DNA of 64,000 bases from Candidatus Latescibacterota bacterium (lineage in GTDB: Bacteria > Latescibacterota > UBA2968 > GCA-2709665): positions 3,904,001 through 3,968,000 of the forward strand of contig OZ242358.1 of the NCBI GenBank assembly GCA_965208835.1, in the 5' to 3' direction. Both the position numbers and the translations under genes were made by a program. The notes beneath the pieces are model-generated. The model saw nothing but the letters and a program-made list of their open reading frames with translations. It did not search any database and was not told the DNA's origin. Shown piece after piece: positions 6,526 through 46,536 of the stretch. Positions within the stretch are counted from its first letter, which is position 1. Every line of letters starts with the position of its first letter.

Positions 6526-7563
6526 GTGAGACTCCTGCAATTCCGCGATCCATCCGCCCCGAAACCCGCGCGTCTCGGGCTGGTCGAGAACGACACGGTA
6601 CTGGACCTCACGGCGTGCGAGCCCTGCCCCGAATCGGTCTACGATCTCTACTTCATACACGGAGGCGACAGCGTCGGGCTGGAAGGGGCAATCGCGCGCA
6701 TCGACACGGCGGGAGCGCCCGCCTACCGCCTGTCTGATCTGATGGACAGCGAACCCTGCGCCGATCGGCCCCACCTGACCGCGCCGGTAACGCCGCCGCC
6801 CGGTCAACCCCACCGGTTGCGGGTCTGGCTGGCGGGCGTGACCCACGCGGACAGCGCCAGGCTTCGCGAAACTGAAGCTAGAGAAGCTACAGGAGGCGCC
6901 GTAAACGTATACGATCAGAAATACAGGGAATGCGCGCAAGGCGGCATACCCGAACTCTTCGCGAAGAACGACGCGGACGCGTTGGCGGGACATCGCGGGC
7001 TCGTCTCCCGCCCTGACGATACCCGGCGCCTCGTTCCCGAAACCGAACTCGTCACGCTTTACGGACTGAACGCCCGCGGCCAGATCGAACGACTGGGCTT
7101 TACGGGCGGCAATGACTATACCGACAACGGTATTGAAGCCGAAAACCCGCTGAATCTTCCCCAGGCCAAGAACTGGCACGGCGGTTGCGCCAGCCTGGGG
7201 CCGGTTCTGGTCACGGATTCCGAATTCGACGACGCCAGCGTCGCCGTATCCTGCGAAATCCTGCGAGAGAACAAGCGAATCGCCCGAAAAACCGGACGCA
7301 CCGGACAAAGCCATCTCAATATGCCGGACCGGCTCTTCCACCTTGAGCGGTCTCTTTTCGGTCGACTCCCCCTGGGCGAAAAGTCCCTGCAACTGTTATA
7401 CTGGGGTACGCCCATCGTCTTTTCCGAAGCCGATCTGCCCAGCGGCCTCCAGGTTAACGACACCGTCCGGATGTCGTTCGGCGGTATCGGCGACCTGCAG
7501 AATTCGATCGGTCCTTTCACCAGAAACCGCCAATTGGCCTGGCTGGAAGCCAATCGGCGGTAA
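6526..7563 (+). CDS. Fumarylacetoacetate hydrolase family protein (2-keto-3-deoxy-sugar-acid dehydratase-like)
   Basis: VWLAGVT, PELFAK, PETEL and GND...IEAENPLNLPQAK motifs. GGAGG RBS before GTG. Confidence 0.75.
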   Translation: MRLLQFRDPSAPKPARLGLVENDTVLDLTACEPCPESVYDLYFIHGGDSVGLEGAIARIDTAGAPAYRLSDLMDSEPCADRPHLTAPVTPPPGQPHRLRVWLAGVTHADSARLRETEAREATGGAVNVYDQKYRECAQGGIPELFAKNDADALAGHRGLVSRPDDTRRLVPETELVTLYGLNARGQIERLGFTGGNDYTDNGIEAENPLNLPQAKNWHGGCASLGPVLVTDSEFDDASVAVSCEILRENKRIARKTGRTGQSHLNMPDRLFHLERSLFGRLPLGEKSLQLLYWGTPIVFSEADLPSGLQVNDTVRMSFGGIGDLQNSIGPFTRNRQLAWLEANRR

Positions 7564-33083: not shown

Positions 33084-34181
33084 TAGAAGCCAATAGAGAT
33101 TATGAAGGAAGTTGCGGTTGTCGCCGTCGACGTATATCATCTCGCCTCCCATTCGGCTGAACGACTTGCAGAACCTGAGGTAATACGCCGGGTTGTCTTT
33201 GGGAGGTTCGCCACTGGACCAATCCCAGGTCATCGGCGCGAGATCGTTGACAGCTATGAGCGGGCGTATTACGCGTTTGTTTTCCTGAATTCGTAGATTA
33301 TTGGCCAGTGAGAGGGCTTTCTCAAAGACCTGCGGCGCCATGACAGCCGAGCCACTTGAGAGGAAAACGCCCCCATCCAGATCCACCACGCCCCTAGCGA
33401 ACACCCGGAAGTCGATATCCGCGCCGCGTCCGATTGCCGCGCCATTGGCCAGGTGATGGTTGTGGATGATATCGTAGCCGATGCCCGGATGTACCGTAAG
33501 TGGCACGCCGAGACGGTATGCCTGGGCCGTGACGGACGCATCCTTGAAAGGGTGTTCCACGCGGCAGCGGCCGGAAGGAATGCCGAAACGGGAGACGACC
33601 TGGAGCAGTTCGGCGTACGCGGGCATTGCGGGTGAGTCCGTGGGGACTGCGGCCCATTCGCGCAGGGCGGATACCAGGTCGTCGCGGCCGGGGATATCGC
33701 AGCCGTCTTCCGAAATGAACTTCCCCAGCGATTCGCCGTAGCCCCTGCCCTCCAGCGCACCGGCGAGAACGGCCAGATGGATGTATCGGCCGGTTTCCTC
33801 CCACGTACCGAAACACCCCGTCGCGACATTTGCCCGCACGTCTTCTTCGGAACGCCCCTGAAAGGCATACTCCCAGTCGTGAATCGTTCCGGCGCCGTTG
33901 GTGGCCAGATGGGTGATCCAACCGCCCTCCATCAGACGGGTCACGACCGGCCCCAGGCCGTTCTTGACCAGATGGGCGCCGTACGCCAGCATGACGGAGG
34001 CGCCCCGCCGCCTGGCGTCGCGGATTTCTTCGGCAACGCGCCGCAGCCTGTCCGCCAGCAGCCCGGAGCCGGGCGCAGGCGCGTCGGGATCGACCATGAT
34101 CTCGTCGATCGAGAACTTGCTCCGCCTCTCCGACAGAGATCTGAGGACGAGATCCCGATGGTCAATCTGTTGATACGGCAT
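33072..34181 (-). CDS. Conserved hypothetical protein, deoxyhypusine-synthase-like fold
   Basis: GAHLVKNG, HLATNGAGTIHD.E, VHPGIGYDIIH and GSAVMAPQVFEKA motifs. Function not established. Confidence 0.6.
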   Translation of the reverse strand: MPYQQIDHRDLVLRSLSERRSKFSIDEIMVDPDAPAPGSGLLADRLRRVAEEIRDARRRGASVMLAYGAHLVKNGLGPVVTRLMEGGWITHLATNGAGTIHDWEYAFQGRSEEDVRANVATGCFGTWEETGRYIHLAVLAGALEGRGYGESLGKFISEDGCDIPGRDDLVSALREWAAVPTDSPAMPAYAELLQVVSRFGIPSGRCRVEHPFKDASVTAQAYRLGVPLTVHPGIGYDIIHNHHLANGAAIGRGADIDFRVFARGVVDLDGGVFLSSGSAVMAPQVFEKALSLANNLRIQENKRVIRPLIAVNDLAPMTWDWSSGEPPKDNPAYYLRFCKSFSRMGGEMIYVDGDNRNFLHNLYWLLTVR

Positions 34182-34193
34182 GAGCCTGCTTGC

Positions 34194-34619
34194 CTATTTG
34201 GCCACCCAGCCCCGCTTGAGTGGGACGTCGGGAGATTCCAGGACGCCGCCGTAGATCGTCACGGCGGTGATTTTTCCGTTCTGCATCCGGCACATATGCA
34301 CTTCGGTGGCATCCAGCTGTTTGCCGTACATTGCTTCGGGCAGTCCGGGAAGAGGCTGGTTTACGATACCCGTGAAGTGAAACTCCACAGCGGCCATGTC
34401 GTGGTCAGCGACGATATTGAGAATTTCGAGCTGCATGTCCCGCTCTTCCTCGTGACAGCCCTGCCAGAGCGCTACCAGCTTATCCGCACCCCGGATGTTC
34501 AGTGCGCCGCCGACCATGGTCGCGTCGTCGGCGTAGGTTTCGCGAAGTCGCTTCCAGTCACAGGCGAAGGCGGCTTCGAGGGACTCCCGTGCAATTCGAG
34601 CGTTGTTTTCGGCGGACAT
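34194..34619 (-). CDS. SnoaL/NTF2-like (ester cyclase family) protein
   Basis: MSAENN...YADDA...GADK...GKI pattern; AGGGAG RBS. Confidence 0.75.
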   Translation of the reverse strand: MSAENNARIARESLEAAFACDWKRLRETYADDATMVGGALNIRGADKLVALWQGCHEEERDMQLEILNIVADHDMAAVEFHFTGIVNQPLPGLPEAMYGKQLDATEVHMCRMQNGKITAVTIYGGVLESPDVPLKRGWVAK

Positions 34620-34659
34620 TCGCATCTCCCTTTGTAGTTGCCGGATCGTAGCCCTCTCT

Positions 34660-35448
34660 CTATTCCACGTCGGCGCCGATCCGGTATTGTTCGAGATTTC
34701 CCCTGTATTGCAGACCGAGAATCTCACGGGACCGTGCGACATTGCACGTTTTTTCGGCACCCGGCGTCCCCACGACGTGGAATACGTCGAAGTCTATATC
34801 CTGGGACTCCAGGCCCAGCCGGCAGGCTTCCGCGAGGTCGTGGCGGCACACCCAGCCCTGGCGGTAGGGGCGCGCTTCCGTACCCAGTTTTTCCCTGTAG
34901 CGGCCGATCCCGAGCCTGCTGTCAACGATGTAATCAGGCCGGAGCACGATGATGCGCAGCCCGAACGCGTCGTAAAACTGCCGGCACATCTCTTCCTGGA
35001 GGCGTTTCGTGACGCCGTAGAGGCCGCCGTCGGGACGCCTGACGTCGGCCGAGAAGAAGATGCCCCCGGGATGGGCGGTCTGGCACGAACCGATGTGCAC
35101 GATTCTCCCGATGCCGTGCCGCCGGGCGGATTCCAGCACGTTCCAGAGCCCCTTGACGTTGATAAGGAAGGGCTTTGCGTCGTCTGTGCCATGGGCGCCG
35201 GGTTCGTCCGAGTGGTACACCGCCATGTGCAGAACCGCGTCCATGCCCGCCACGGCACGATGAACGGCATCGAAATCCACGATATCACCGTGCACGACGT
35301 CGCCGCCCGTCCACTCGCCGTCGGTATCGTTCCAGGCTTGCCAGGCCTGCGGGCCGTAGTCGAAAGCCCGGATCCGATGGTTCCCGTCCAAAGCGGCCAG
35401 CGCCGCCCTTCCCAGCCAGCCCGCCGCGCCGAATACGACAATGTTCAT
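34660..35448 (-). CDS. NAD-dependent epimerase/dehydrogenase (uronate dehydrogenase-like)
   Basis: GAAGWLG Rossmann motif and YGVTK catalytic motif. Confidence 0.85.
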   Translation of the reverse strand: MNIVVFGAAGWLGRAALAALDGNHRIRAFDYGPQAWQAWNDTDGEWTGGDVVHGDIVDFDAVHRAVAGMDAVLHMAVYHSDEPGAHGTDDAKPFLINVKGLWNVLESARRHGIGRIVHIGSCQTAHPGGIFFSADVRRPDGGLYGVTKRLQEEMCRQFYDAFGLRIIVLRPDYIVDSRLGIGRYREKLGTEARPYRQGWVCRHDLAEACRLGLESQDIDFDVFHVVGTPGAEKTCNVARSREILGLQYRGNLEQYRIGADVE

Positions 35449-35478
35449 CTTCCTGGCTCCCCTCGCAATGAACAGGTG

Positions 35479-36885
35479 TCAGAACTTCTCCCCTGCAAGT
35501 CCGTATTTCCTGTAATAGTGACGAAATTGATCGTAGCTCAAGCTGAGCGACTCGGCCGCCTTGCGCTGGTTCCAGTTTGCGCGGCTCAGCGCGCTTCTGA
35601 GCAGGCCGAGTTCAAATGCCGTGACCTGATCGTCAAACCCGTCTCCGGGTGCGGCCACGGCCTCGCTGGTGATTTCCGGCGGCAGGTCCCGCGGCTCGAT
35701 GGACGCGCCCGTTGCCATGCACGCGGCGCGTTCGACGGCGAATTTGAGCTCACGCACGTTTCCAGGCCACGCGTAACCCAACAGCTGGCGCAGGGCGCTT
35801 TCCGAAAACGGTCGGGCCTCGAGGCCCGGCACCTCCCGGACGATCTGTTCGACGAAAAATCCGGCGAGCGGATGGATGTCTTCACGACGCTCCCGAAGCG
35901 GAGGAATGCGGATGATTTCAAAACGCAGGCGGTCGTAGAGATCCTGCCGGAAACGGCCTTCACCAATCTCGCGCTCGAGGTTGGCATTCGTGGCGGCAAT
36001 GATACGTACGTCCACGCTGGTCGGCGCGGCGCCACCCACCCGTTGAATTTCCTGGTACTCGATGGCGCGCAAGACGTTCTGCTGGAACTCGGGCGTGGTG
36101 TTGCCGATCTCGTCCAGCAACAGAGTGCCGCCGTTTGCCGCTTCAAACCGGCCCGGCCGGGCTTCCGTGGCTCCGGTAAAGGCGCCTTTCTCATGGCCGA
36201 AGAGCTCGCTTTCCAGGAGGTTGGCGGAAAGGGCGGCGCAGTTGACTTTGACGAATGGACGATCTCTTCGTAACCCGCCGTAGTGGATCGCTGCGGCTAC
36301 GAGTTCCTTTCCGGTTCCGGGTTCGCCGAGAACCAGGACCGGTCGGGGTATGGAAGCGATGCGCTCTGCCTGTTGCATAATCCGCAGCATCTGGGAGCTG
36401 GCGTTTACCGTCCGGTACTTCTTCCCGAATTCGTCCCGGTAGAAACGGTTCTCCCGGTCCAGATCCTTTACCCTGGCCTGGAGGCGCGCGTTCTCCTTGA
36501 GTACGGCAAGTACGCGGTCGAGTTTTTCGAGGCTGAGTTCGAGCCTGTCCTCTATATAGAAATCCTTCTCGATAAAGTCGGAAGCACCCATGCGCAGGGC
36601 CGCAACGGCATTTTCCACGGTGCCCTTGCCCGTGAGGATAATGACCGGCAAATCGGGTGCGAGATCGCGAATCTGGCGAAGGATTTCGAGACCGTCCGGC
36701 TCGGCCGGTCCGAAATCGATATCCAGAATGGCCATGTCAACGTCCGAAACGTGCTTTCGCAGGTACGCAAAGGCGGCTCTTCCTGTTGGGAAAGCCCTCA
36801 CGATCCGGCCATCAACCTGAAGGCTTCGCGTGAGCATGCCCAGGATTTCGGACTGGTCGTCTGCGACAACGATTTGCGGGTTCAT
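35479..36885 (-). CDS. Sigma-54-dependent response regulator (REC-AAA+-HTH), PspF-like
   Basis: ADD...LDI...TG...EK receiver, [31 protein letters not shown] and [17 protein letters not shown] motifs. Confidence 0.92.
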
Positions 36886-36888
36886 GAC

Positions 36889-38517
36889 TTACTCGATGAA
36901 TTCCTCGGCCAGCGGCAGCCTGGATGAAGATATCGGATCGCCGCTCCAGCCGATGCTGTCTGTTTCGGAAACGAGTTCGAAGTCCACCGGAATGTCGATG
37001 CGAAACACGGCTCCGGCGCCCGGTCTGCTGATCATGCGCAGGTTTCCCCTGTGGGCGGACACGATGCGCGAGCAGATGCTCAGGCCGAATCCATTGCCCT
37101 TTTCTTTGGTTGAGAACCCGGGATCGAAGATTCTGCCCTGGATCTCTTCCGATATGCCGGGCCCGTCGTCTTCCACTTCGATGAAAACCGAAGCCCGCTT
37201 ATTGTCGTAGCCGGCCTGTACCGTGACCACACCCTCCTCGTCTACGGCGTCCAGTGCGTTCAGAATCAGGTTGGTGACGGCTTCCCGCAACATGCCGGGG
37301 TCGACCTTGACCTGCGGAACCTGCGGCTCGTACACGAAGCGGAGCAACGCACCGCCGGTACGGGTAGAGACTGTCTCCCTGATTCTGCCCAACAACGGCG
37401 GAACGTCAACCAGTGTGGGGTTCAACGGGTCCTGCTTCATGCTGCGCAGATAGGCGACCCATTGGTCGTAGATGTGCTCCTGGTCCCGGGCGATCCCTGT
37501 CAGATCATCGAGAAATCTGTCTTCCTGCGGGACCCTTCGAATCAGCCGGCGTGTACGACTCCCGACCAGTCCCATCAGGTTCTTTATCTGGTGGCCCCGC
37601 GTGTACAGGCTCTCACCCACCTGCACACGCCCCATGTCGATGAGTTCGAGGGATAACCGTGCCAGAACCGAGGCTGCCTTTGCGCCGAACTCTTCGATGA
37701 TGGTCGTATATTCCTGCTCCATCTGCGCCGAACTCTTGTGATCGAACAAGAGATGCGCCAGGTTTCTGTAGGGCAGCGCGTAGTCCGGCTCGAGCTGGAT
37801 GGCTATCTTGAATGCGCCAAGTGCCTGGAGGGTCTGACCCGCTTGCATGAGCAGAACCCCAAGGTTGTTGTGACCCGGCGCGAACAGCGGATTCGCTTCA
37901 AGACCGCGACGGTAAACCATGATCGCTTCATCGACGTTTTCCGGAAGGTCGTCGAGGAAGCTGGCGAGCAGGAAGCAGGTGCCGTCCACGTTGCCGAAGG
38001 GCACCCCCCGATCCACGGCATCCAGAATATAACGAAGCGCGTCGACCGCCTGTTGCCGACCCGTCGATCCCGATTCCGCGCCCTCTGCCCGCAAGAGCGC
38101 CAGTTGAAAGTGCGCCGCCAGATGGTCAGGATCAAACCTGGTGGCGGCTTCGAGGTCCTTCAGTCCCCCTTTGAATCCGCCCTTGATCCGGCACAGGCCC
38201 ATCTTGAAATGCATGTCCGCGGCGCGGTCCGGGACAAGATCCAGGCAGACGGTAAAGCAGTCCAGCGCGTCCCCCCAACTGCCCTGTCTGAAGTGTACAA
38301 CGCCCAGGTTATGGCGCGCCCGCACATTCCCGGCATCCTCCGTCAATGCCGCCAGGTAGGCTGCTTCGGCACTCGCCAGGTCGCCAGTTTCCATCGCGTT
38401 GTCGCCGCCACGGCAGTGCCTCCGGGCGTCGGCATTCCCGGATTCAGGCAGGGTCCGGGCGATACCGATACGGTCGGACGGGGCCGGCGCGTTGTCCGGT
38501 AATTCGGATTTATTCAA
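36889..38517 (-). CDS. Soluble histidine kinase with N-terminal TPRs
   Basis: HNLG/HNNLG TPRs, H-box GHQIKN, NLILNA, EDDGPGI, FDPGFSTK and GFGL. No TM segment seen. Confidence 0.88.
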   Translation of the reverse strand: MNKSELPDNAPAPSDRIGIARTLPESGNADARRHCRGGDNAMETGDLASAEAAYLAALTEDAGNVRARHNLGVVHFRQGSWGDALDCFTVCLDLVPDRAADMHFKMGLCRIKGGFKGGLKDLEAATRFDPDHLAAHFQLALLRAEGAESGSTGRQQAVDALRYILDAVDRGVPFGNVDGTCFLLASFLDDLPENVDEAIMVYRRGLEANPLFAPGHNNLGVLLMQAGQTLQALGAFKIAIQLEPDYALPYRNLAHLLFDHKSSAQMEQEYTTIIEEFGAKAASVLARLSLELIDMGRVQVGESLYTRGHQIKNLMGLVGSRTRRLIRRVPQEDRFLDDLTGIARDQEHIYDQWVAYLRSMKQDPLNPTLVDVPPLLGRIRETVSTRTGGALLRFVYEPQVPQVKVDPGMLREAVTNLILNALDAVDEEGVVTVQAGYDNKRASVFIEVEDDGPGISEEIQGRIFDPGFSTKEKGNGFGLSICSRIVSAHRGNLRMISRPGAGAVFRIDIPVDFELVSETDSIGWSGDPISSSRLPLAEEFIE

Positions 38518-38542
38518 TCGGTTACACCTCGATCAAACGGGT

Positions 38543-40057
38543 TTATTCAGAGGCTTTTTCGGTTTTGTCTTCAGTGCCGTCCGCCGGATTCATCCCGCCT
38601 GCCATCCTGCCCAGAAACTCCGGCAGTTCCAGACCCGCCAGTTTTGCCAGTTCGTGCATGGGAGGAATGGCGCCCATCAGACGCTGACCGAGGTTGGTCA
38701 TACCTCCCTGTCCGTTGCCGCCGTCCCAGACCACGATCTTTTCCAGCGGGAGATTCCGAATGGCTTCGGCCTGTATGCCCGCAACCTCGGTCAACCGCTC
38801 CACGATGAGGAAGGCGGCGGCAGCCTGGTCCTTTCCGCCGCACGCGGCAACCAACTCCTTATAACCTTCGGCCTTGGCATCAAGGATGGCCTGGGTGCCC
38901 TCTGCTTCGGCCCTCCTCTCCGCCAGAATCGCGGCGGCCTCGCCTTCAGCCACAAGTGTTTTTCGGGTTTTCTCCGCCTCGGCCTGCACAACCAGCTTCT
39001 GTTTCTGCGCCTCGGCCTCTACGACGATTTCGGCCCTGAGTCGGGCTTCTTCGCGCAGCGACCGGGCTTCCTCGGCCTCTCTCTCCGCCTTTTCCTGGGC
39101 GACCCGGATGGCGCCGTCGGCGGCCTTGGCCGCCTCCTGTCCCGTCTGGCGCGCGACCTCTTCTGCTACCGTCTGCTGCGCCATGTAACCGGCCTTTTTT
39201 GAATCGGCCTCAGCCTCGGCCTGCACCGCTTCCGCGTCCAGAGCAGAGACCATCTGGCGTTTGTTTCTGGTGGCCTCCGCCTCCCCGATCTGGGCTTCGG
39301 ATTCCAGTGCGGCAACCCTCTGTCGCCTGTCCGTGGCGGCTTCCGCCTCGCCGATATCGGCGGCCGCGTTCGCGGCAGCCACGTCCGTACGCTGGTCACG
39401 CTCCCGTTCGGCCACACCCACCTTGCCCATTTTCTCCTGCTCGGCCACGTCGATGGCCGCCTGGTTGATGGCTTCGGCAGCCGCTTTCTGACCAAGGGCC
39501 TTGATATAGCCGCTCTCGTCTTCGATATCCTTGATATTCACATTGATCACGGAGAGACCGATTTTCTCCATTTCGGTTGACACGGCGTCATTGACCTTGG
39601 ACATAAACGCCTGCCGGTCCCGGTTGATTTCTTCGATTTCCATTGTGGCGATCACCGCCCGCATCTGGCCGAGGATGATATCCTGCGCCTGACTCTCGAT
39701 CTGTTCGCGCGAAAGACCCAACAGTCGGATTGCCGCATTTTGCATCACGCCGGTCTGATTTGAAACCGCTGCCGTGACGGTTGTGGGAACCGACACACGG
39801 ATGTTCTCCTGGGAAAGCGCGTTGTCCAGGTCTATGGGAACGACGAACGGCTCCAGGTCCAGATACTCGTAGTCCTGAAGGAGCGGAAGGACGAAGGCAG
39901 CGCCCCCATGTACGCACTTTGCGGCCCCTTTTCCGGTCTTTCCGTAGACGACCAGTATCTTGTTGGAGGGACACCGTTTGTACCTGGAAATGAACGTCAC
40001 GAACAGAAGAAACACCACCAGCAGCAAAATGATCGTTAGAATCGTCTCGGTTGCCAT
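38543..40057 (-). CDS. Flotillin (SPFH + coiled coil)
   Basis: N-terminal TM, RYKRCPSNKILVVYG, GGAAFVLP and INVNIKDI motifs, long EA-rich coiled coil. Confidence 0.93.
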   Translation of the reverse strand: MATETILTIILLLVVFLLFVTFISRYKRCPSNKILVVYGKTGKGAAKCVHGGAAFVLPLLQDYEYLDLEPFVVPIDLDNALSQENIRVSVPTTVTAAVSNQTGVMQNAAIRLLGLSREQIESQAQDIILGQMRAVIATMEIEEINRDRQAFMSKVNDAVSTEMEKIGLSVINVNIKDIEDESGYIKALGQKAAAEAINQAAIDVAEQEKMGKVGVAERERDQRTDVAAANAAADIGEAEAATDRRQRVAALESEAQIGEAEATRNKRQMVSALDAEAVQAEAEADSKKAGYMAQQTVAEEVARQTGQEAAKAADGAIRVAQEKAEREAEEARSLREEARLRAEIVVEAEAQKQKLVVQAEAEKTRKTLVAEGEAAAILAERRAEAEGTQAILDAKAEGYKELVAACGGKDQAAAAFLIVERLTEVAGIQAEAIRNLPLEKIVVWDGGNGQGGMTNLGQRLMGAIPPMHELAKLAGLELPEFLGRMAGGMNPADGTEDKTEKASE

Positions 40058-40208
40058 CGCAATCCCTCCTCAAATGAATATTCCACCATTGAACGAGATC
40101 ACTCCCGGGGGAGGATTCCAACCGGTTTCAATTCTCGATCCTTCTTCCGCGTTGTCGCGGGCCCGCAATCAGGACACTGCAAGCAAGGAGTTCGGAACCG
40201 GAAGTCAA

Positions 40209-40805
40209 TCAGGACGTGATGGGCTCGACCTCAAGCGTGGTTGGACTAACCACCCGGAGAATGCGGACAGGCGTTTTGGCCGAGACCGGCATGCCGTTTT
40301 TTCCGCGGGCAGATACGTAGGCGACCGTCCCGCTCTCTATCACCCGGACCTGCCCTGTGCCGCCCTCCGGTATATCCAGATACACTTCTCCCGACGTGCC
40401 GACGCAGGTATCCAGGCTGGCATTTCCAGTCTCGGTGAGCTGCCGGATGCCGTGGAAGAAATAGGCCACGACCGCCATGCCCGCGCTGCCCCAGACAAGC
40501 GCGTAGACAAGGGCGGTTCGAACTTCCAGCCCTCTTTGCAGATAGAGAGCGCCGGCCCACCCGAACAGCATGCCAAAGGCAATGAGAGACCTGATAGAAA
40601 GCAGCTTGAAAGAGGCAACCGTACCGTCGTTGAACTCCGGCCCGGAATCGCCGAAGTTCGCATCTCCAGACACGGCCGCGTCCGCACCTCCTCCGAGACC
40701 GAGCAAAGCCGCCAGGAGTTGCCAGACGAAAAACGCACTGAAGAAAATCGCCACGACGTAGAAAATCTGGTTGAGTACGGTCAGTTCCATCCACCAGCTA
40801 TCCAT
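40209..40805 (-). CDS. NfeD-like membrane protein, flotillin partner
   Basis: Three TMs with S.RS..AF..FGW.G motif and OB-fold tail (GEVYLDIP...GQVRV). Lies directly upstream of flotillin. Confidence 0.85.
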   Translation of the reverse strand: MDSWWMELTVLNQIFYVVAIFFSAFFVWQLLAALLGLGGGADAAVSGDANFGDSGPEFNDGTVASFKLLSIRSLIAFGMLFGWAGALYLQRGLEVRTALVYALVWGSAGMAVVAYFFHGIRQLTETGNASLDTCVGTSGEVYLDIPEGGTGQVRVIESGTVAYVSARGKNGMPVSAKTPVRILRVVSPTTLEVEPITS

Positions 40806-41072
40806 ATCCGGCTCCCTTCTTCGTACCTCGTTGAATCTGCGCAGCCGATCTCCTGCAAGTGGACATAACGCGGGCTGCGTCCGGCAGCGTCCTGCGCCGC
40901 GAAATGTGATATAGAATATTCTCTGCGTCAATACAAAATCGTGACGGTTTCAGCAGGTGTCTGCCGATGCCGGGCCATTCACTGACCGTGATATCGTCCG
41001 GGAAACCGGCTGAATTTCAATGGCTGGCACCCTGGATCCCGGACCTGATCCCGGACCGGCCGTTATGCGGCA

Positions 41073-41648
41073 TCAGGAGGGCATCAGCCCCCGCTTCTTG
41101 AATTCGCCCTTCAATTGGTAACGTCCGCGGTTGAGCCAGGTCTTTACCGTCCCCATCGGAATCTGAAGCGCCAGGGTGATCTCTTCGTAGGACCAGTCCC
41201 GGACATAACGCATCCAGACGACCTTGCGGTACCTGGCCGGCAATGCGCGAATGCTCTTCCTGACCAGTTCGCGCTGCTGGTTTCGCTCCACCGAGACTTC
41301 CGGATTCTCGTCCACAACGGGCATGCGCGTGGCATCGGCGAGGGCCGCGGGGTCGTCGGTTACCTTTATCCACCTTCGGCGCACCTGCTGTTTGCGAAAG
41401 TGGGATTTGTGCACGTTCAGCGCAATCTGGGTAAGCCAGGTGGCGAATGCGGCCTCGCCTCTGTACGAGCCAAGAGCACCATACGCCTTCAGAAAGGCGG
41501 TTTGAACAAGATCCTGCGCGGTTTCTGGATCGCTCGTCCGTCGCACCATCGTCGCGTAGATTTGTTCATGACAGGCCCGGTAAAGAACACCAAAGGCAGC
41601 CGCGTCGCCATCGATTGCCCTTCGGACCAGATACTGTTCGTTTTCCAT
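41073..41648 (-). CDS. ECF sigma factor (SigW/RpoE-like)
   Basis: GDAAAF, DLVQTAF, FATWL.QIA.N and SYEEI...GTVKT.L.R motifs. Confidence 0.93.
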   Translation of the reverse strand: MENEQYLVRRAIDGDAAAFGVLYRACHEQIYATMVRRTSDPETAQDLVQTAFLKAYGALGSYRGEAAFATWLTQIALNVHKSHFRKQQVRRRWIKVTDDPAALADATRMPVVDENPEVSVERNQQRELVRKSIRALPARYRKVVWMRYVRDWSYEEITLALQIPMGTVKTWLNRGRYQLKGEFKKRGLMPS

Positions 41649-41679
41649 TTATTGGATTTCCTCTTTGAGGTACTGTGAA

Positions 41680-41856
41680 TTACCTGGCGTAACCGGTCAG
41701 CAGCCGGTAACCCACGTAAATCAGGACGAACGACACAAGCAGTTTGAGGAGCAACAACACGATTTCCAGGGACATGCCGATGAGCTTGATCGCTTCGAAG
41801 ATACCTAGGTACGCACCTATGGCGATAAGTATGATGCCGAGAATCTTTGCGAGCAT
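41680..41856 (-). CDS. Small 58-aa hydrophobic two-TM protein, below ORF-track cutoff
   Basis: GAAAGGAA RBS, then MLAKILGIILIAIGAYLGIFEAIKLIGMSLEIVLLLLKLLVSFVLIYVGYRLLTGYAR*. Fills the operon gap. Confidence 0.8.
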   Translation of the reverse strand: MLAKILGIILIAIGAYLGIFEAIKLIGMSLEIVLLLLKLLVSFVLIYVGYRLLTGYAR

Positions 41857-41976
41857 GGGTTTTCCTTTCTCGTTCGAGGTGGTGATGTTGACAAAGAATA
41901 CCTTCTGGACTTTGAAACGAACCAGGAGCCCACTCTATCCCTGGTGTGCGCAGGCGGGATCCGATCTCAACGGCAA

Positions 41977-42354
41977 TCAGCCCGGTGGCCCATTGCCTTC
42001 CGTCCTGCCGAGTTTTTCGTCCATGGAAATCAGTACATCCTGAACGTCCGTCATTCTCCGTTCCAGTTCGTTCAGGCGGGCGTTGACCGATTCTGTCTCT
42101 CGGGCGCCAGTTCCACCGGTCTGGCCGCCGGTACGTCGTCTCAGGAATTTCACAACGCTGCCAATCGCAAGGATTGACACGGCAAGGATCACGGAGATTG
42201 ACAGAATTCCCAACGCAATATCCATGACGAAACCCCTGAAGTCGAAATGGTACGTCGGTGCGAGAGGGTCGCCGAAGAGGAATTTCAGCGTTACCGCACC
42301 TATAAAAAACAGGATAAAGACGACGGCGCCCTTGGTAACGAACTCTCGGTTCAT
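41977..42354 (-). CDS. Two-TM protein with C-terminal coiled-coil motif (paralog 1)
   Basis: AAGGAGG RBS before MNREF; ends ARLNELERRMTDVQDVLISMDEKL. Confidence 0.8.
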   Translation of the reverse strand: MNREFVTKGAVVFILFFIGAVTLKFLFGDPLAPTYHFDFRGFVMDIALGILSISVILAVSILAIGSVVKFLRRRTGGQTGGTGARETESVNARLNELERRMTDVQDVLISMDEKLGRTEGNGPPG

Positions 42355-42385
42355 CAGGCTTCCTCCTTCGGCTTGCAGTCGTTGT

Positions 42386-42961
42386 TCAGACGCTGGTTTT
42401 GTCTCGCCTGAGCCTCTCATCCAGGGTGATGATCACCTCCTGGAGGTCGTTCAGGCGCTGGTCCACGGCGTCCAGCCGGGATTCCATTCGTTTTGCCCGT
42501 TCGGGACTCATCCCCTTGCCTTCCCTCTTCTTTCTCACATGTATATAGCTCACGAAGCCCCCGGCGAAAATAATCAGACAGATGCCGATTCCGATATCCA
42601 TCGCGATGCCCAGCCCCGTTCCGGATTGAGCCAACTCAAGCCGGTCTGCGACGTCCTCGAGTTTACCGGCAGTTGACTCCAGACGTCTCTGATTTTCCAG
42701 GAACAGTCTCACGCCTTCGTCCGTCAGGCCGGCGGTTTTATCGGACAGGGTAAGCGCGGGAACGTCATCGGCATCTGGCAGCAGGTTCCACCGTTCCGAC
42801 GTGAAGGCCCAGATCACGAACCCGACGGCCGCCATCGCCAGGAATATACCCACAGTGGATCCGCTTGGCTTTTTGTTGCCGGGAGTCATTAAATAAACGG
42901 AAAATCCACCCGCGACCATCAGCAGGCAAAGAGCCAACGCCAATTCCAGTATCCAACTCAT
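42386..42961 (-). CDS. Three-TM protein with C-terminal coiled-coil motif (paralog 2)
   Basis: GGAGG upstream of MSWILEL; ends SRLDAVDQRLNDLQEVIITLDERL. Confidence 0.8.
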   Translation of the reverse strand: MSWILELALALCLLMVAGGFSVYLMTPGNKKPSGSTVGIFLAMAAVGFVIWAFTSERWNLLPDADDVPALTLSDKTAGLTDEGVRLFLENQRRLESTAGKLEDVADRLELAQSGTGLGIAMDIGIGICLIIFAGGFVSYIHVRKKREGKGMSPERAKRMESRLDAVDQRLNDLQEVIITLDERLRRDKTSV

Positions 42962-43028
42962 CCTTTTCCCTCCTCTGAAATCCCTGCGTTTCGATAATCC
43001 TGAGTCGGATTTCCGGCTAACTGAATTT

Positions 43029-43403
43029 TCAAGCCACCTTATTGACGTTTCGTGTGGCGGCTTCCGTCGTACTGCTCGCCGCCTCGGCATACTTGAAAAA
43101 GCGCGAGAGCCTCGTCACTTCAAGGGCTTTCCGGATCCGACGGGAAACGCCGCTCAGCCTCAGGTCGCCACCGGCGTTTCGGGTGGATTTCAGGCCCGTT
43201 GCCAGTTCACCGAGCATGGCAGCGCCGACACGATTTACGTGCGAAAAGTCGACCACGACCGTGCGAGCGCCGCTGTCCACCAGGTTCGTTATCTTGCGTC
43301 CCAGGGTCGCCGCGTCCGGGTTGGCGACGGGGTCGCCGCTTACGGAGACGACAACCGTCCCATCCTGAATCCGATCGCTTAGGTGAATGCGTTGTGAATT
43401 CAT
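43029..43403 (-). CDS. STAS-domain (anti-sigma antagonist-like) protein
   Basis: VVVSVSGD, VVVDFSHV, GGDLRL and LEVTRL..FF motifs. Confidence 0.85.
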   Translation of the reverse strand: MNSQRIHLSDRIQDGTVVVSVSGDPVANPDAATLGRKITNLVDSGARTVVVDFSHVNRVGAAMLGELATGLKSTRNAGGDLRLSGVSRRIRKALEVTRLSRFFKYAEAASSTTEAATRNVNKVA

Positions 43404-43489
43404 GATTCAATGCTCCGTATTTTGGTCAGGTTTAAATCTGATGATTCCGGATCCTTCTTCTCGACGTTATCCAATGACTTTGCCAAAAT

Positions 43490-43705
43490 TCACGATGCGC
43501 CTCCCGATACCTGGCGATTCAGCTTTTCATCGATCGCGATCATGATTTCCTGGATATCGGTCAATCTCCTGTCGAGGTCGTCCAGTCTGGCATTCAGACG
43601 CTCCTCGACCTTTCCCGGCAAAACCCCCTTGGACTGCCGATCTACGTATTTGTGTACGGCGGCCGCGAGCACTATCAACGCGATTCCAACACCGACTTCA
43701 AACAT
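43490..43705 (-). CDS. One-TM protein with C-terminal coiled-coil motif (paralog 3, PspB-like architecture)
   Basis: GGAGG RBS; ends ARLDDLDRRLTDIQEIMIAIDEKL. Confidence 0.8.
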   Translation of the reverse strand: MFEVGVGIALIVLAAAVHKYVDRQSKGVLPGKVEERLNARLDDLDRRLTDIQEIMIAIDEKLNRQVSGGAS

Positions 43706-43731
43706 GACATCCCTCCGTCAATTTAGTGATA

Positions 43732-44373
43732 TCAAAGTTCATCCACCGGCTTAGCCCGGTGTTTTTCGGACCCGCGTTCAATTTCGGGAAAGTGATACAC
43801 AACGAGACCGGACTCTGACACACGCACCTCGGCGCTGCCGCCGACGGCCAACGCACCGAGGATCTCTTCCGCTTTACCTACCGTCATCCTCCCGTCAGTA
43901 GCCGCCTCCAGAACGGTGACGCTACCGCCTTTCTCCCGGGCGAGCCTGAGCAATCGATGTTGATACTGCGCGTAGCGCCTATGTTCGGCCGACATGTGGA
44001 CCGAGCGGGCAGCGAGCCATAAAACCAGCGCAAGCGCGATGACGGCGATGCCCACAAAAAAGTCCAGAGGGTCGAGGCTGAAGCCGGACGACTGGAATCC
44101 GGAAAAGACTATGCCCATCAGACCGCCGAAAACGAACAGAATCGCTGTGGCTTTCAGCAGGACCGAGAAAGCGTATCGCATAGAGCAACTCCCGTCAGTG
44201 GCCAGATCGGAGAATCGGAAGGACAGCCGACGCGATCGCGGACATCGAACCGTTCCCGGCATCTGCCGCGCGGGTCGGGTCTTCCGGAAATCACGCCATG
44301 CCTCTGTTGCGTCGCGCATCGTTTTATCGATCTCGTACGCGATTTCGTCCAGGATTTTCTGGAATTCACGCAT
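43732..44373 (-). CDS. Two-TM membrane protein with C-terminal winged-helix-like domain
   Basis: Overlaps the pspA stop by 8 bp. LLRLAREKGGSVTVLEAA...AEEIL..L...VRVSESGLVVYHFPE fits a helix-HTH-wing pattern. Confidence 0.7.
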   Translation of the reverse strand: MREFQKILDEIAYEIDKTMRDATEAWRDFRKTRPARQMPGTVRCPRSRRLSFRFSDLATDGSCSMRYAFSVLLKATAILFVFGGLMGIVFSGFQSSGFSLDPLDFFVGIAVIALALVLWLAARSVHMSAEHRRYAQYQHRLLRLAREKGGSVTVLEAATDGRMTVGKAEEILGALAVGGSAEVRVSESGLVVYHFPEIERGSEKHRAKPVDEL

Positions 44374-45043
44374 CGGATTTGCGGATCTTTTTCTTCAGGG
44401 CCTCGAGTTCCTCTTCCACCGTGTTCCGTCGTTCCAGTTTTTCGAACGTGTCGTCGAGCGAGGGATCTTCGCCTGCGATTTCGGCGTGAGCGGAAGCCTC
44501 GGCTTCTTCGTTCTCAACCCGGCTGCGGAAACGTTCGAAGCTGGAAAAAGCGTCGTCGCCTATGCCCGAGAGCCCTTGGGCGATCTGCTTCCGCGCCTGG
44601 GCGGCGCGTCGCCGCGCGATGAGGGCGCCCTGGCGGGTGCGTGCCTCGTCCAGTTTGGACTTCAGCTGCGACAGTTGCTTCTTGAGTTGATCGGAGGTCT
44701 TGTGGCTCTCTTCGAACGCGACTTCCAAATCGCGGGCGGCTTTTTCAACCGTGGACTTTCGTTCCAGCGCGCGCCGGGCGAGGTCGTCCTCACCGGATTC
44801 CACGGCGAGTTCGGCCTTCTTCTGCCACGCCTCGATCTGGTCCGTCTTATCCAGCAGTTGACGCTCCAGGCGCTTCTCGTTGGCGACGGCGGTCCCGACG
44901 GACGCCGTCGCCTTGTTCACGGCCTCTTCCATTTCGAGGATCATCTGCCGGATCATCTTTTCCGGATCTTCCGCGCGATTCAGAAGGTCGTTTATGTTGG
45001 CCTTGATAATGTCCGCCATTCTGGAGAAAATTCCCTTCGCCAT
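44366..45043 (-). CDS. pspA: PspA/IM30 (Vipp1, ESCRT-III superfamily) protein
   Basis: MAKGIFSRMADIIKANINDLLNRAEDPEKM, W..KA..A...G.DDLAR.AL and VEEELEALK motifs; AAGGAG RBS. Confidence 0.96.
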   Translation of the reverse strand: MAKGIFSRMADIIKANINDLLNRAEDPEKMIRQMILEMEEAVNKATASVGTAVANEKRLERQLLDKTDQIEAWQKKAELAVESGEDDLARRALERKSTVEKAARDLEVAFEESHKTSDQLKKQLSQLKSKLDEARTRQGALIARRRAAQARKQIAQGLSGIGDDAFSSFERFRSRVENEEAEASAHAEIAGEDPSLDDTFEKLERRNTVEEELEALKKKIRKSDA

Positions 45044-45136
45044 GATTATACTCCTTTCTCTTGCGGGTGTCCGTAGCCCGTCACGGTAAAAAATCCCAGA
45101 ATCTGTCACACATCCGCCGATCTACCGTCCACTTAT

Positions 45137-45152
45137 TGCAAGGACCGTGCCC
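45137..45152 (-). promoter_or_regulatory. Sigma-54 (-24/-12) promoter of the pspA operon
   Basis: Minus strand reads GGGCACG-GTCC-TTGCA with exact GG-N10-GC spacing, ~94 bp upstream of the pspA ATG. Confidence 0.85.
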
Positions 45153-45159
45153 ATTTGAC

Positions 45160-45212
45160 AATAAGCCATAGAATTATTTAAATATCTGTTATTTATTGAT
45201 TTATTTCTTAAT
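45160..45212 (-). promoter_or_regulatory. AT-rich tract with IHF-like site upstream of the sigma-54 promoter
   Basis: Minus strand AATCAA-TAAA-TAA at 45189-45201, near match to WATCAA-N4-TTR. Confidence 0.5.
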
Positions 45213-45414
45213 CCCTTGTACGGTTGTCGACGACTGTTGGTGAAATACACCAGATACAAGGCGAAAACGACCGACTTGCATCGGCTCCGGAGGCTCGTTC
45301 ACGTCCATAGCCGACTTGTCTTTTTCGGACAAATGGCGTAAAGTTTGGAGTCCTCTAACCTGAGCGATCGGTGTAGCTGCGGGATTTTTCGAGTTTCCGT
45401 GTAAGTCGGCCAAT

Positions 45415-46536
45415 ATGGACAAGTACAGACAACTGCGCATGCTGAGCGCCGGGCTTTGCCTGGTCATGTTATGTGCAAGCCCTCTTGCCGGGCTTTCGCT
45501 GGTCTACAAGGTTCGTAAGGGCGATTCCCTGTGGTCGATTGCCCGAAAACACCAGACCAGCATCGGGGCGATCAAGCGGATCAACAAGCTGCGGACCAAC
45601 AACGTCTATCCGGGTCAGGTACTCCGTCTGACACCACGGATTGTCAAGTATAACGCAGCGAACGGACCTTATTACTACCGCAAGCCCACTGCCGGCAGGC
45701 AGAGGCATCGGAATTACAGGGAACGTTCGCGTTCGTCCCCGAAGACGGACTATACACGCGCACGAACCCTCCTGCAAGCCTTCGATGCACAAATTTTCGC
45801 CAAAGCCCCGAAAAAGAGATGGCAACCGCTCAAGGGCTGGCGGATTGTGCTTGACCCCGGACATGGGGGTATCGATCCGGGAGCGATCGTTTCGAATACA
45901 ACGGGCAAGGATAGACGGGTATATGTGGTCGAGGATGAATACGTGTACGACATCGCGCTGCGCATGTACAAGAGACTCCGGCTTCTGGGTGCCGAGGTCG
46001 CATTGACGGTGATCAGCCCGAATCACCTGATCCGGGACAACCTGCCGGCCCGCACGACGTTTGTCCACGAACAGAACGAAGTCTACAACGATGAGCGGTA
46101 CAACAGGAGAAATTCGGAAAAGGTGAGACCCAGGAGCGCCAATCTCTCACAGCGAGTCCGGGTGGCGAATCGTTTTTTCAAGAAGGCGCGCAGAGACAGG
46201 TGTCTGTTTGTCTCGCTGCACGCGGATAACACCCCCGGGCGCCCGCAAGGTCCGCTGGTGATCTATCACAAGAGGCGGGGCAGGGTTGACAGGCGTTCCA
46301 GGTCCTTCGCCCGGGTCATGCGTTCGGCCCTGCACCGGCCGAACCTGCCCGCGGGGGACCGGGGGAGGAACCTCGCGGTCCTGCGGAACAACCTGGCTCA
46401 CGCCGAAATTCTCGTTGAAGTTCACAACGTCCACCACAAGCACGAGGCCTGGCTGATTCGACGTCATCCGATACGCGAGCAGAACGCGGACCGAGTCGTT
46501 AAGGGAATCCTGGCTTACGCAAAAAAACGAAGATGA
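45415..46536 (+). CDS. LysM + N-acetylmuramoyl-L-alanine amidase (Amidase_3)
   Basis: Signal peptide, YKVRKGDSLWSIA LysM, LDPGHGG, SLHAD and ILVEV motifs. Confidence 0.88.
   Translation: MDKYRQLRMLSAGLCLVMLCASPLAGLSLVYKVRKGDSLWSIARKHQTSIGAIKRINKLRTNNVYPGQVLRLTPRIVKYNAANGPYYYRKPTAGRQRHRNYRERSRSSPKTDYTRARTLLQAFDAQIFAKAPKKRWQPLKGWRIVLDPGHGGIDPGAIVSNTTGKDRRVYVVEDEYVYDIALRMYKRLRLLGAEVALTVISPNHLIRDNLPARTTFVHEQNEVYNDERYNRRNSEKVRPRSANLSQRVRVANRFFKKARRDRCLFVSLHADNTPGRPQGPLVIYHKRRGRVDRRSRSFARVMRSALHRPNLPAGDRGRNLAVLRNNLAHAEILVEVHNVHHKHEAWLIRRHPIREQNADRVVKGILAYAKKRR

Follow-up and report, generated by a model that had tools for sequence, protein, structure and literature searches.

PspF is the textbook example of a bEBP (bacterial enhancer-binding protein) that has no regulatory domain of its own and is controlled in trans by PspA, and bEBPs as a class are modular. 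We examined a 64,000-nucleotide stretch of a Candidatus Latescibacterota genome (contig OZ242358.1 of assembly GCA_965208835.1, positions 3,904,001 to 3,968,000; hereafter "the window," with coordinates counted from its first nucleotide), in which a pspA gene cluster ends in a PspF-like activator with an N-terminal receiver domain, directly preceded by a histidine kinase with tetratricopeptide repeats (TPRs). An earlier note made from the sequence of the window had read this pair as a PspF-type activator rewired for phosphorylation by a soluble kinase; a kinase sensing a protein through its TPRs, for example the state of PspA or coiled-coil tails, would on that view have taken the place of direct inhibition by PspA. 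Our analysis points to a Psp system that is probably under two-component control, in which the TPR kinase would act on the receiver of a PspF-clade activator and the activator on a sigma54 promoter upstream of pspA.

In Escherichia coli (pspF-pspABCDE), PspF lacks a regulatory domain in cis and is inhibited in trans by PspA through Y51, L52, and W56, which the relevant passages of one study identify as its PspA-docking determinants, the YLW patch (PMC3791423). The Latescibacterota locus resembles the E. coli system in that the AAA+ and helix-turn-helix (HTH) regions of the two activators belong to one clade and share a D-x-x-D-R-L-x-F motif, pspA is preceded by a sigma54 promoter, an AT-rich stretch, and upstream sites, and the presumed output is a PspA-based membrane-stress response. 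It differs in having a receiver and a long linker in front of the AAA+ domain and in its version of the patch, which is Y/G/R. Furthermore, E. coli pspF is divergent from pspA, whereas the activator gene described here lies with the kinase gene at the far end of the cluster, and the cluster lacks the PspB and PspC of the E. coli system. In passages of Psp surveys and a sigma54 regulome paper (PMC11237479, PMC9239133, PMC3041696, PMC4641369), PspF appears as an AAA+ domain plus an HTH, with ACT and PAS variants, and PspA appears with band-7/flotillin neighbors and under Lia-type two-component control. According to one of these, a comparative survey, descriptions of PspF come from Enterobacteriaceae only (PMC9239133). 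We found neither a receiver-fused PspF nor a TPR kinase in a psp context in the portions of the literature covered, and the supplement of PMC11237479, which lists many PspA neighborhoods, may hold cases.

Two-component control of bEBPs is represented by NtrB/NtrC, AtoS/AtoC, ZraS/ZraR, and NtrC1/DctD, which share with this locus the receiver-AAA+-HTH order and an adjacent histidine kinase; the activator's long linker is reminiscent of the NtrC1/DctD class. The kinases of the NtrC family use PAS or transmembrane sensors, whereas the kinase described here has TPRs and no HisKA match. In PEP-CTERM systems, PrsK, PrsR, and PrsT reportedly unite a histidine kinase, a receiver-bEBP, and TPR repeats in a regulatory unit related to the envelope; in that case the TPRs form a protein of their own, and the kinase is membrane bound. 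The corresponding models scored the window proteins far below their cutoffs (TIGR02915, regulator, 324 versus 502.6; TIGR02916, kinase, 76.9 versus 300). With respect to output, there is a parallel in outline with LiaFSR-LiaIH of Bacillus subtilis, where, according to the section of PMC11237479 that describes it, a histidine kinase and a response regulator induce a PspA-family effector and its membrane partner. However, the parts are unrelated: LiaS is bound to the membrane, and LiaR combines a receiver with a winged HTH and works with sigma70-type polymerase, in contrast to the soluble TPR kinase and sigma54 AAA+ activator of this locus.

RESULTS

The gene cluster and its activator

The source genome is a single contig of 5.18 Mb with three pspA copies, one rpoN gene, and 12 clear bEBPs, and its close relatives are metagenome-assembled genomes labeled Latescibacterota or, in some cases, Gemmatimonadota. 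Read along the minus strand, the cluster opens with a sigma54-type promoter and pspA, followed by genes for a 213-residue protein with two transmembrane (TM) segments (the 2-TM protein), for a STAS protein and a pair of TM paralogs, and for an ECF sigma factor. Next come a 240-residue multi-TM protein and a flotillin/SPFH protein; the TPR kinase and then the receiver-bEBP (the activator) complete the series. Only 3 nucleotides separate the stop codon of the kinase from the start codon of the activator. The four central genes and the parts of the activator are as follows.

44366-45043, minus strand: pspA (open reading frame open to 45109; likely start at the ATG behind AAGGAG, giving MAKGIFSR...)
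43732-44373, minus strand: 213-residue 2-TM protein, overlapping the pspA stop codon
36889-38517, minus strand: soluble TPR histidine kinase, 542 residues, TTG start
35479-36885, minus strand: response-regulator bEBP, 468 residues, PspF-clade member
36550-36873, minus strand: receiver domain, activator residues 5-112 (Pfam Response_reg PF00072, E = 1e-19)
36406-36549, minus strand: linker between receiver and AAA+ domain, residues 113-160, 48 residues (from alignment)
35920-36405, minus strand: sigma54-interaction AAA+ core, residues 161-322 (Pfam Sigma54_activat, E = 1e-62)
36256-36285, minus strand: equivalent of the W56 loop, residues 201-210 (from alignment to E. coli PspF)
36169-36186, minus strand: GAFTGA, residues 234-239, inside the AAA+ core
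35920-35943, minus strand: DLYDRLRF, residues 315-322, with the clade signature D-x-x-D-R-L-x-F
Residues 331-409 of the activator: AAA_lid_14 (Pfam)
35521-35619, minus strand: Fis-type HTH, residues 423-455 (weak HTH_8 match, aligned to the PspF HTH)

All of the activator motifs named in the earlier note are present in the protein at 35479-36885 (the loop at residues 201-210, DLYDRLRF at 315-322, and the HTH segment at 439-455). The receiver that it placed N-terminal to the AAA+ domain is complete, as judged by the Pfam match and by conserved pocket residues, namely D9/D10, T85, K107, and an acceptor at D55 or D57, between which the alignment is ambiguous. Its LD-x-D-x-G motif is common to the Planctomycetota forms described below, while E. 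coli NtrC, AtoC, ZraR, and GlrR differ, with D-[IVL]-x-M-P in the NtrC type. The linker is about 15 residues longer than in these four E. coli proteins and, in the alignment, includes a heptad-like KEN-x-x-L stretch, from which we infer a coiled coil.

Phylogenetic placement of the AAA+ domain

Alignment against solved PspF chains and K-12 PspF showed the E. coli motifs cited in the earlier note to be correct. Between E. coli PspF and the activator, HYLSSRWQGP pairs with residues 201-210, DLLDRLAF with DLYDRLRF, and NQKRAAELLGLTYHQFR with residues 439-455. The two proteins are 45% identical over 320 residues; a BLASTP comparison with E. coli NtrC gave 41% over 415 residues, without reaching the HTH. 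The top NCBIfam model was that of PspF (TIGR02974), with 347.2 bits from the AAA+ part alone, while the NtrC model reached 334 bits with the receiver included. The activator is below the cutoffs of the NtrC and AtoC models (TIGR01818, 334 versus 558.6; NF008469, 333 versus 714).

We placed the AAA+ domain in a maximum-likelihood tree of 61 rows and 253 AAA+ columns, with support expressed as ultrafast bootstrap/SH-aLRT. As references, we used the annotated K-12 sequences of PspF, NtrC, AtoC, ZraR, GlrR, NorR, and FhlA, together with the 11 other bEBPs of the genome. The 42 relatives came from 80 loci; 11 stood for the 47 near-identical Latescibacterota loci, and all other loci were included, minus L018 and L069. 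A single clade, supported at 100/99, united E. coli PspF with receiver forms from Latescibacterota (12) and Planctomycetota (10) and with 17 proteins that lack a receiver. E. coli NtrC, AtoC, ZraR, GlrR, NorR, and FhlA and all 11 paralogs of the genome fell outside it. Forcing the Latescibacterota proteins to group with NtrC and AtoC was rejected by the approximately unbiased (AU) test (log-likelihood difference of 81.7, P = 6.1e-5), which, together with the receiver motif, sets the activator apart from the NtrC family. Neither the tree nor the AU test thus bore out a branching with NtrC and AtoC, the outcome that the earlier note had raised against its own proposal. In this first alignment, the D-x-x-D-R-L-x-F motif marked each of the 40 rows of the PspF clade; the 21 rows outside it all lacked the motif and read [YH]-R-[LV]-x-[VT...].

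Because the 80 loci had been retrieved with query-derived patterns, we also ran a HMMER search of 1.84 billion library representatives, with the AAA+/HTH part as query. From its 150 best hits, 113 were added to give a 168-row tree, and 37 were dropped because they were longer than 700 or shorter than 300 residues, did not have exactly one Walker A match, or had too short a core. All 26 of the added hits with D-x-x-D-R-L-x-F fell inside the PspF clade (63 rows, SH-aLRT 94), as did 1 of the 87 added hits lacking a match to the motif; the other 86 were outside. E. coli PspF itself sat within a 12-row subclade of receiver-less proteins. The view that the AAA+/HTH part is of PspF type is therefore borne out by phylogeny, signature motif, and gene context. 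On these sequence comparisons, the activator is a member of the PspF lineage and not a PspF equivalog.

Three enterobacterial loci recovered by the pattern search (L048, L057, and L080) encode bEBPs of the NorR type and not PspF, forming a clade with E. coli NorR at 100/99. Hit lists from degenerate patterns are no guide to family.

The TPR kinase

The regions of the kinase, from the AlphaFold2 model, alignment, and conserved motifs, are as follows.

37738-38433, minus strand: TPR-like helical repeats, residues 29-260 (AlphaFold2 model and alignment)
37438-37614, minus strand: predicted DHp helical hairpin, residues 302-360 (H309 codon at 37591-37593, in R-G-H-x-[IL]-K-N)
36988-37416, minus strand: catalytic ATP-binding domain, residues 368-510 (N, G1, and G2 boxes)
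36892-36981, minus strand: disordered C-terminal tail, ending in P-L-A-E-E-F-I-E-COOH (pLDDT below 50)

Pfam matched TPRs at residues 38-100 and 200-256 and HATPase_c (PF02518) at 406-511 (E = 7e-23), with no further domain even at E ≤ 5. The maximum Kyte-Doolittle mean over 19 residues was 1.06, against 2.2 to 3.1 for the membrane proteins of the cluster, and so the protein has no membrane segment. These two results agree with the earlier description of a soluble kinase whose sole input is its TPRs. In the AlphaFold2 model (mean pLDDT of 81), TPR-like helices span residues 29-260 and are followed by a long helix (263-298), a helical hairpin (302-360), and the alpha/beta catalytic domain (368-510); residues 513-542 form a disordered tail. 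Among 21 aligned kinases, 2 of them from Planctomycetota, H309, K312, and N313 were invariant, as were N416/N420, D450-x-G-x-G, and G474-x-G-x-G. The TPR core (residues 157-256) is highly conserved, and the first ~120 residues are missing in a subgroup of orthologs of ~420 residues; the N terminus that follows from the TTG start is conserved in orthologs. A search for the family returned 393 database hits at E ≤ 1e-10, which carried generic names throughout.

The pspA promoter and its upstream sites

The promoter and the conserved blocks upstream of it are as follows.

45137-45152, minus strand: sigma54 -24/-12 promoter of the pspA operon, GGGCACGGTCCTTGCA, with one mismatch to TGGCACG-N4-TTGCW
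45239-45332, minus strand: candidate enhancer region of conserved blocks, putatively bound by the activator
45316-45332, minus strand: palindrome TTGTC-N7-GACAA, occurring once in the 5.18-Mb genome
45260-45272, minus strand: GG-rich near-palindrome GGTCGTTTTCGCC
45239-45251, minus strand: GG-rich near-palindrome GGTGTATTTCACC

The site at 45137-45152 is the sole intergenic match of such quality within the cluster. Among 44 related loci with enough upstream sequence, 40 have a sigma54 site upstream of pspA with at least 10 of the 12 specified bases, and the remaining 4 match 9 of 12 at the corresponding position. The blocks conserved among 12 close loci are the palindrome, the two GG-rich near-palindromes, an AT-rich stretch on the promoter side, and the -24/-12 element. 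Judged by its sequence elements, this layout is the usual one for an enhancer-dependent promoter. The half-site GG[CT]G-N5-C[GA]CC is so degenerate that it cannot serve to find a regulon across the genome. A stricter form matched 33 times, with 2 of the matches within 400 bp of a sigma54-like site, one of these being the pspA site.

Further sigma54-like sites lie apart from the cluster. The third pspA copy of the genome (1142528-1143169, minus strand, at ~1.143 Mb) has TTGGCACGACATTTGTA within ~400 bp upstream, after an AT-rich stretch and the perfect palindrome GGCGT-ATC-ACGCC. The -12 element of this site, TTGT, is identical to that of the E. coli pspA promoter. Since no bEBP gene adjoins this pspA copy, it may share the regulator encoded at 35479-36885. 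Within the window, TGGCACGGCGGTTGCG (7174-7189, plus strand) has one mismatch to the sigma54 consensus.

Conservation of the module

Gene context was assessed by tblastn of the window proteins against the 80 loci, 48 of which are of the Latescibacterota type. Of these 48, 47 had the TPR kinase, 45 had the ECF sigma factor, and 45 had PspA and the 2-TM protein; the three in which the last two were missed are contigs of 2.8 to 6.5 kb. The flotillin and its 240-residue TM partner were present in 36 loci and missing as a pair from the other 12. In the most divergent loci (L046 and L047, 58 to 59% identity), only pspA and the genes for the 2-TM protein, the kinase, and the regulator were found, plus a small TM gene in L046. 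The core module therefore consists of these four genes, which stand together in 45 of the 48 loci.

Relatives in Planctomycetota comprised 10 loci with full-length, collinear regulators of 46 to 50% identity that have the LD-x-D-x-G receiver motif and the long linker alike. Two of them, L058 (4876-7632) and L059 (8633-11386), encode a TPR + HATPase_c kinase directly upstream of a receiver-bearing regulator of the PspF clade. These kinases have the H-box R-G-H-x-[IM]-K-N, as in Latescibacterota. The TPR parts are only weakly alike between the two phyla, the overall identity of 26% coming mostly from the catalytic half. A scan of the 10 loci for sigma54 sites gave none worth following beside the kinase/regulator pair. 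In L058 and L059, the pair adjoins genes for a SurA-like peptidyl-prolyl isomerase and a Mur ligase.

The 2-TM protein and conserved C-terminal tails

The model of the 2-TM protein (pLDDT of 73) has an N-terminal helix, a TM hairpin, a cytoplasmic winged-helix-like domain at residues 132-200, and a flexible tail. A comparison with a protein atlas gave unnamed clusters only, with a weak MarR lead at 0.79. The protein ends in a motif conserved in relatives.

43735-43749, minus strand: C terminus of the 2-TM protein, R-A-K-P-V-D-E-L-COOH

By pattern, a tail of the form R-A-[KR]-P-V-D-[ED]-L was present in 42 of 45 2-TM proteins, and the kinase tail P-[LI]-A-E-E-F-[IV]-[EQ] (36892-36912 in the window) was present in 40 of 44 orthologs. 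Where both genes were complete (41 loci), 36 loci had both tails, 2 (L046 and L047) had neither, and 3 were discordant. One discordant locus, L018, is a pattern miss, and the other two, L017 and L034, have odd gene ends. The joint absence in L046 and L047 counts as one phylogenetic event and not as a statistic. The tail of the flotillin is not conserved, and that of PspA is moderately conserved. A prediction of the complex between kinase residues 30-300 and residues 125-213 of the 2-TM protein, made with alignments, returned a score of 0.00 and a mark of 0.32, which speaks neither for nor against contact.

A fold search with the winged-helix domain (residues 132-200) returned ArsR-type proteins, MarR, Z-alpha, and ESCRT-II subunits, and the tie of many winged-helix families at Z scores of 9 to 10 led us to set aside assignment to a specific family. 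The ESCRT-II rows are curious beside PspA, a member of the ESCRT-III family, yet they do not stand out among the tied folds.

Other features of the cluster

Between the 2-TM protein and the kinase lie the following genes.

43029-43403, minus strand: STAS protein, accessory, between pspA and kinase
42386-43090, minus strand: TM paralog 1, with conserved C-terminal helix, accessory, between pspA and kinase
41977-42420, minus strand: TM paralog 2, with conserved C-terminal helix, accessory, between pspA and kinase
41073-41648, minus strand: ECF sigma factor, accessory, between pspA and kinase
40209-40931, minus strand: 240-residue multi-TM protein, the flotillin partner
38543-40057, minus strand: flotillin/SPFH protein

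The TM paralogs at 41977-42420 and 42386-43090 gave no Pfam match. They are similar to each other (E = 2e-9) and have their last TM helix in common; their shared C-terminal helix reads L-[TN]-D-[IVL]-Q-[DE]-[VI]-x-I-x-[IML]-D-E-[KR]-L, and copy number differs among relatives. A first impression that the 147-residue TM protein has a PspB-like tail was dropped, as BLASTP with E. coli PspB aligned nothing at E ≤ 100. The ECF sigma gene has no recognizable anti-sigma gene adjoining it, and the STAS protein, which resembles anti-sigma antagonists, is encoded upstream; detection of STAS was confined to the closest relatives, namely 12 of the 14 loci L001 to L014. The 240-residue multi-TM protein has a C-terminal beta-rich domain and matches no family model, and together with the flotillin it fits the pair of flotillin and YqiJ/YuaF-type partner described in a passage of PMC11237479. 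A scan of 34000-45600 for sigma70 promoters and terminators, as a guide to operon boundaries, gave no excess over shuffled sequence.

DISCUSSION

At this locus, a kinase with intact catalytic residues and a receiver-bEBP with a PspF-clade AAA+ domain are co-conserved with pspA and the 2-TM protein, behind a sigma54 promoter with conserved upstream blocks. We consider it likely, from these sequence features, that the kinase controls pspA through the activator. The soluble TPR kinase would autophosphorylate on H309 in response to a protein or peptide bound by its TPRs, and the phosphate would pass to D55 or D57 of the receiver. The activator would then bind the conserved palindromic sites ~90 to 190 bp upstream of pspA, where its AAA+ ring would open the sigma54 promoter at 45137-45152, its predicted target. 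The output would comprise PspA, the winged-helix protein with two TM segments, and, probably, the membrane genes further downstream. By analogy with NtrC1/DctD, the unphosphorylated receiver may hold the AAA+ domain off through the long linker.

Several observations weigh against this proposal. The HTH_8 match of the activator (residues 423-455; E = 0.0014, 18.7 bits) is below the Pfam cutoff of 22, and the protein is also below both PspF equivalog cutoffs (TIGR02974, 347.2 versus 443.55; NF008622, 291.4 versus 529). The predicted DHp region of the kinase has no Pfam HisKA-type match even at E ≤ 5. Kinase and activator are encoded ~7 kb downstream of the promoter, and the intervening ECF sigma gene and other regulators could drive parts of the cluster independently. 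Within the PspF clade, the order of branches is poorly resolved, including the history of receiver gain and loss. Finally, none of the 10 Planctomycetota loci contains pspA, and a PspA family search of 5 of those genomes, which are incomplete, returned weak hits only, in 2 of the 5.

The most serious alternative, possible though in our judgment less than even, is that PspA continues to act on the AAA+ domain in trans, binding and inhibiting it as in E. coli, with the receiver and kinase as a second input added to that control and not a replacement for it. Membership of the AAA+ domain in the PspF clade is in keeping with such dual control. The state of the docking patch bears on it in both directions. 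In the activator, the patch residues correspond to Y202, where the tyrosine is kept, G203 in place of L52, and R207 opposite W56. The tyrosine is kept in 12 of 12 aligned Latescibacterota forms, which favors dual control; the glycine and arginine at the other two positions speak against it. In the 61-row alignment, only E. coli PspF has a tryptophan in the W56 column, and all three of Y51, L52, and W56 are absent from the 17 receiver-less clade members of other phyla (Acidobacteriota, Calditrichota, Desulfobacterota, Lentisphaerota, Omnitrophota, and others). A PspA homolog is encoded beside the gene in 15 of 18 receiver-less loci. These pspA-adjacent proteins have neither the patch nor a cis domain, and so PspA-type trans control may use other surfaces. 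Against this, a cis receiver with a long linker, as in NtrC1 and DctD, is normally enough to gate such activators. From the alignment, the YLW patch looks like a trait of the enterobacterial protein and not of the PspF clade. The earlier note had taken the loss of W56 as a sign of rewiring; because relatives outside the enterobacteria that lack a receiver and lie mostly beside pspA are also without W56, its loss is not diagnostic.

A second alternative, which we regard as rather unlikely, is that the TPR kinase and regulator form an independent cassette with an input unrelated to Psp proteins, the pspA operon being merely its output in Latescibacterota. The Planctomycetota loci L058 and L059 speak for it, with the pair present in the absence of pspA and alike in H-box, receiver motif, and regulator sequence; because of this occurrence, the pair has no intrinsic link to pspA. 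Also in favor of this alternative, one common origin of the forms with a receiver was not rejected (log-likelihood difference of 2.7, AU P = 0.36). The free tree put the Planctomycetota receiver forms closer to receiver-less ones (96/80). On the other hand, the Latescibacterota pair never occurs apart from pspA where the flank is long enough, the kinase and the membrane protein coupled to pspA have or lack their conserved tails jointly, and the TPR parts are only weakly alike between the phyla. Receiver-bearing proteins of the PspF clade also extend further, to at least 9 additional clusters at 50% identity; of the 15 library hits that fall in the clade and have ~150 extra residues at the N terminus, 9 show a Pfam receiver at E ≤ 1e-6. 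With such forms widespread and the same pair found in Planctomycetota without pspA, the term "rewired" makes the locus look more unique than it is.

As to what the kinase may sense under the two-component reading, short acidic C-terminal tails are classic TPR ligands, as in the EEVD-TPR co-chaperone systems. The TPR "carboxylate clamp" of Hop, CHIP, and PP5, which binds the EEVD of Hsp70 and Hsp90, resembles this module in that TPRs occur together with conserved acidic extreme C termini; this is no more than a resemblance, with no clamp residues identified, and the monomer model shows the tail of the kinase as disordered. Recognition of a tail by the TPRs would be an attractive input. A specific version, to which we give little credence, is that two acidic tails, the AEEFIE end of the kinase itself and the PVDEL end of the 2-TM protein, compete for the TPR groove, so that a relay of tails would replace the contact between PspA and PspF. 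The kinase's own tail, when in the groove, would cause autoinhibition or lock the dimer, and membrane stress, or the loading of PspA onto the 2-TM protein, would expose or hide the PVDEL tail. If true, this relay would let a soluble kinase report the state of the membrane to a sigma54 activator of PspF type.

Least probable of all is that the regulator acts on a different sigma54 promoter, such as that of the third pspA copy (TGGCACG-N4-TTGTA with a GGCGT-N3-ACGCC palindrome at ~1.143 Mb and a -12 TTGT as in E. coli), since the ~7 kb between regulator gene and promoter that would suit this idea is outweighed by the single good sigma54 site in the cluster, the conservation of synteny and promoter across more than 40 loci, and the restriction of the TTGTC-N7-GACAA palindrome to the promoter at 45137-45152, and the two targets are in any case not mutually exclusive.

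The two-component reading overturns nothing and introduces no new principle, because bEBPs are modular and control of PspA homologs by a two-component system is known from Lia. As this locus and its relatives show, the PspF lineage is broad across phyla, and outside the enterobacteria it lacks the YLW patch through which PspA docks. In a large branch of the lineage, the activator comes with a receiver domain and with a dedicated kinase that is soluble and TPR based, and an uncharacterized TPR-kinase family is thereby placed beside a candidate output. For Latescibacterota, the locus offers a concrete system in which to ask how membrane stress reaches a sigma54 activator when contact between PspA and PspF is not the switch.

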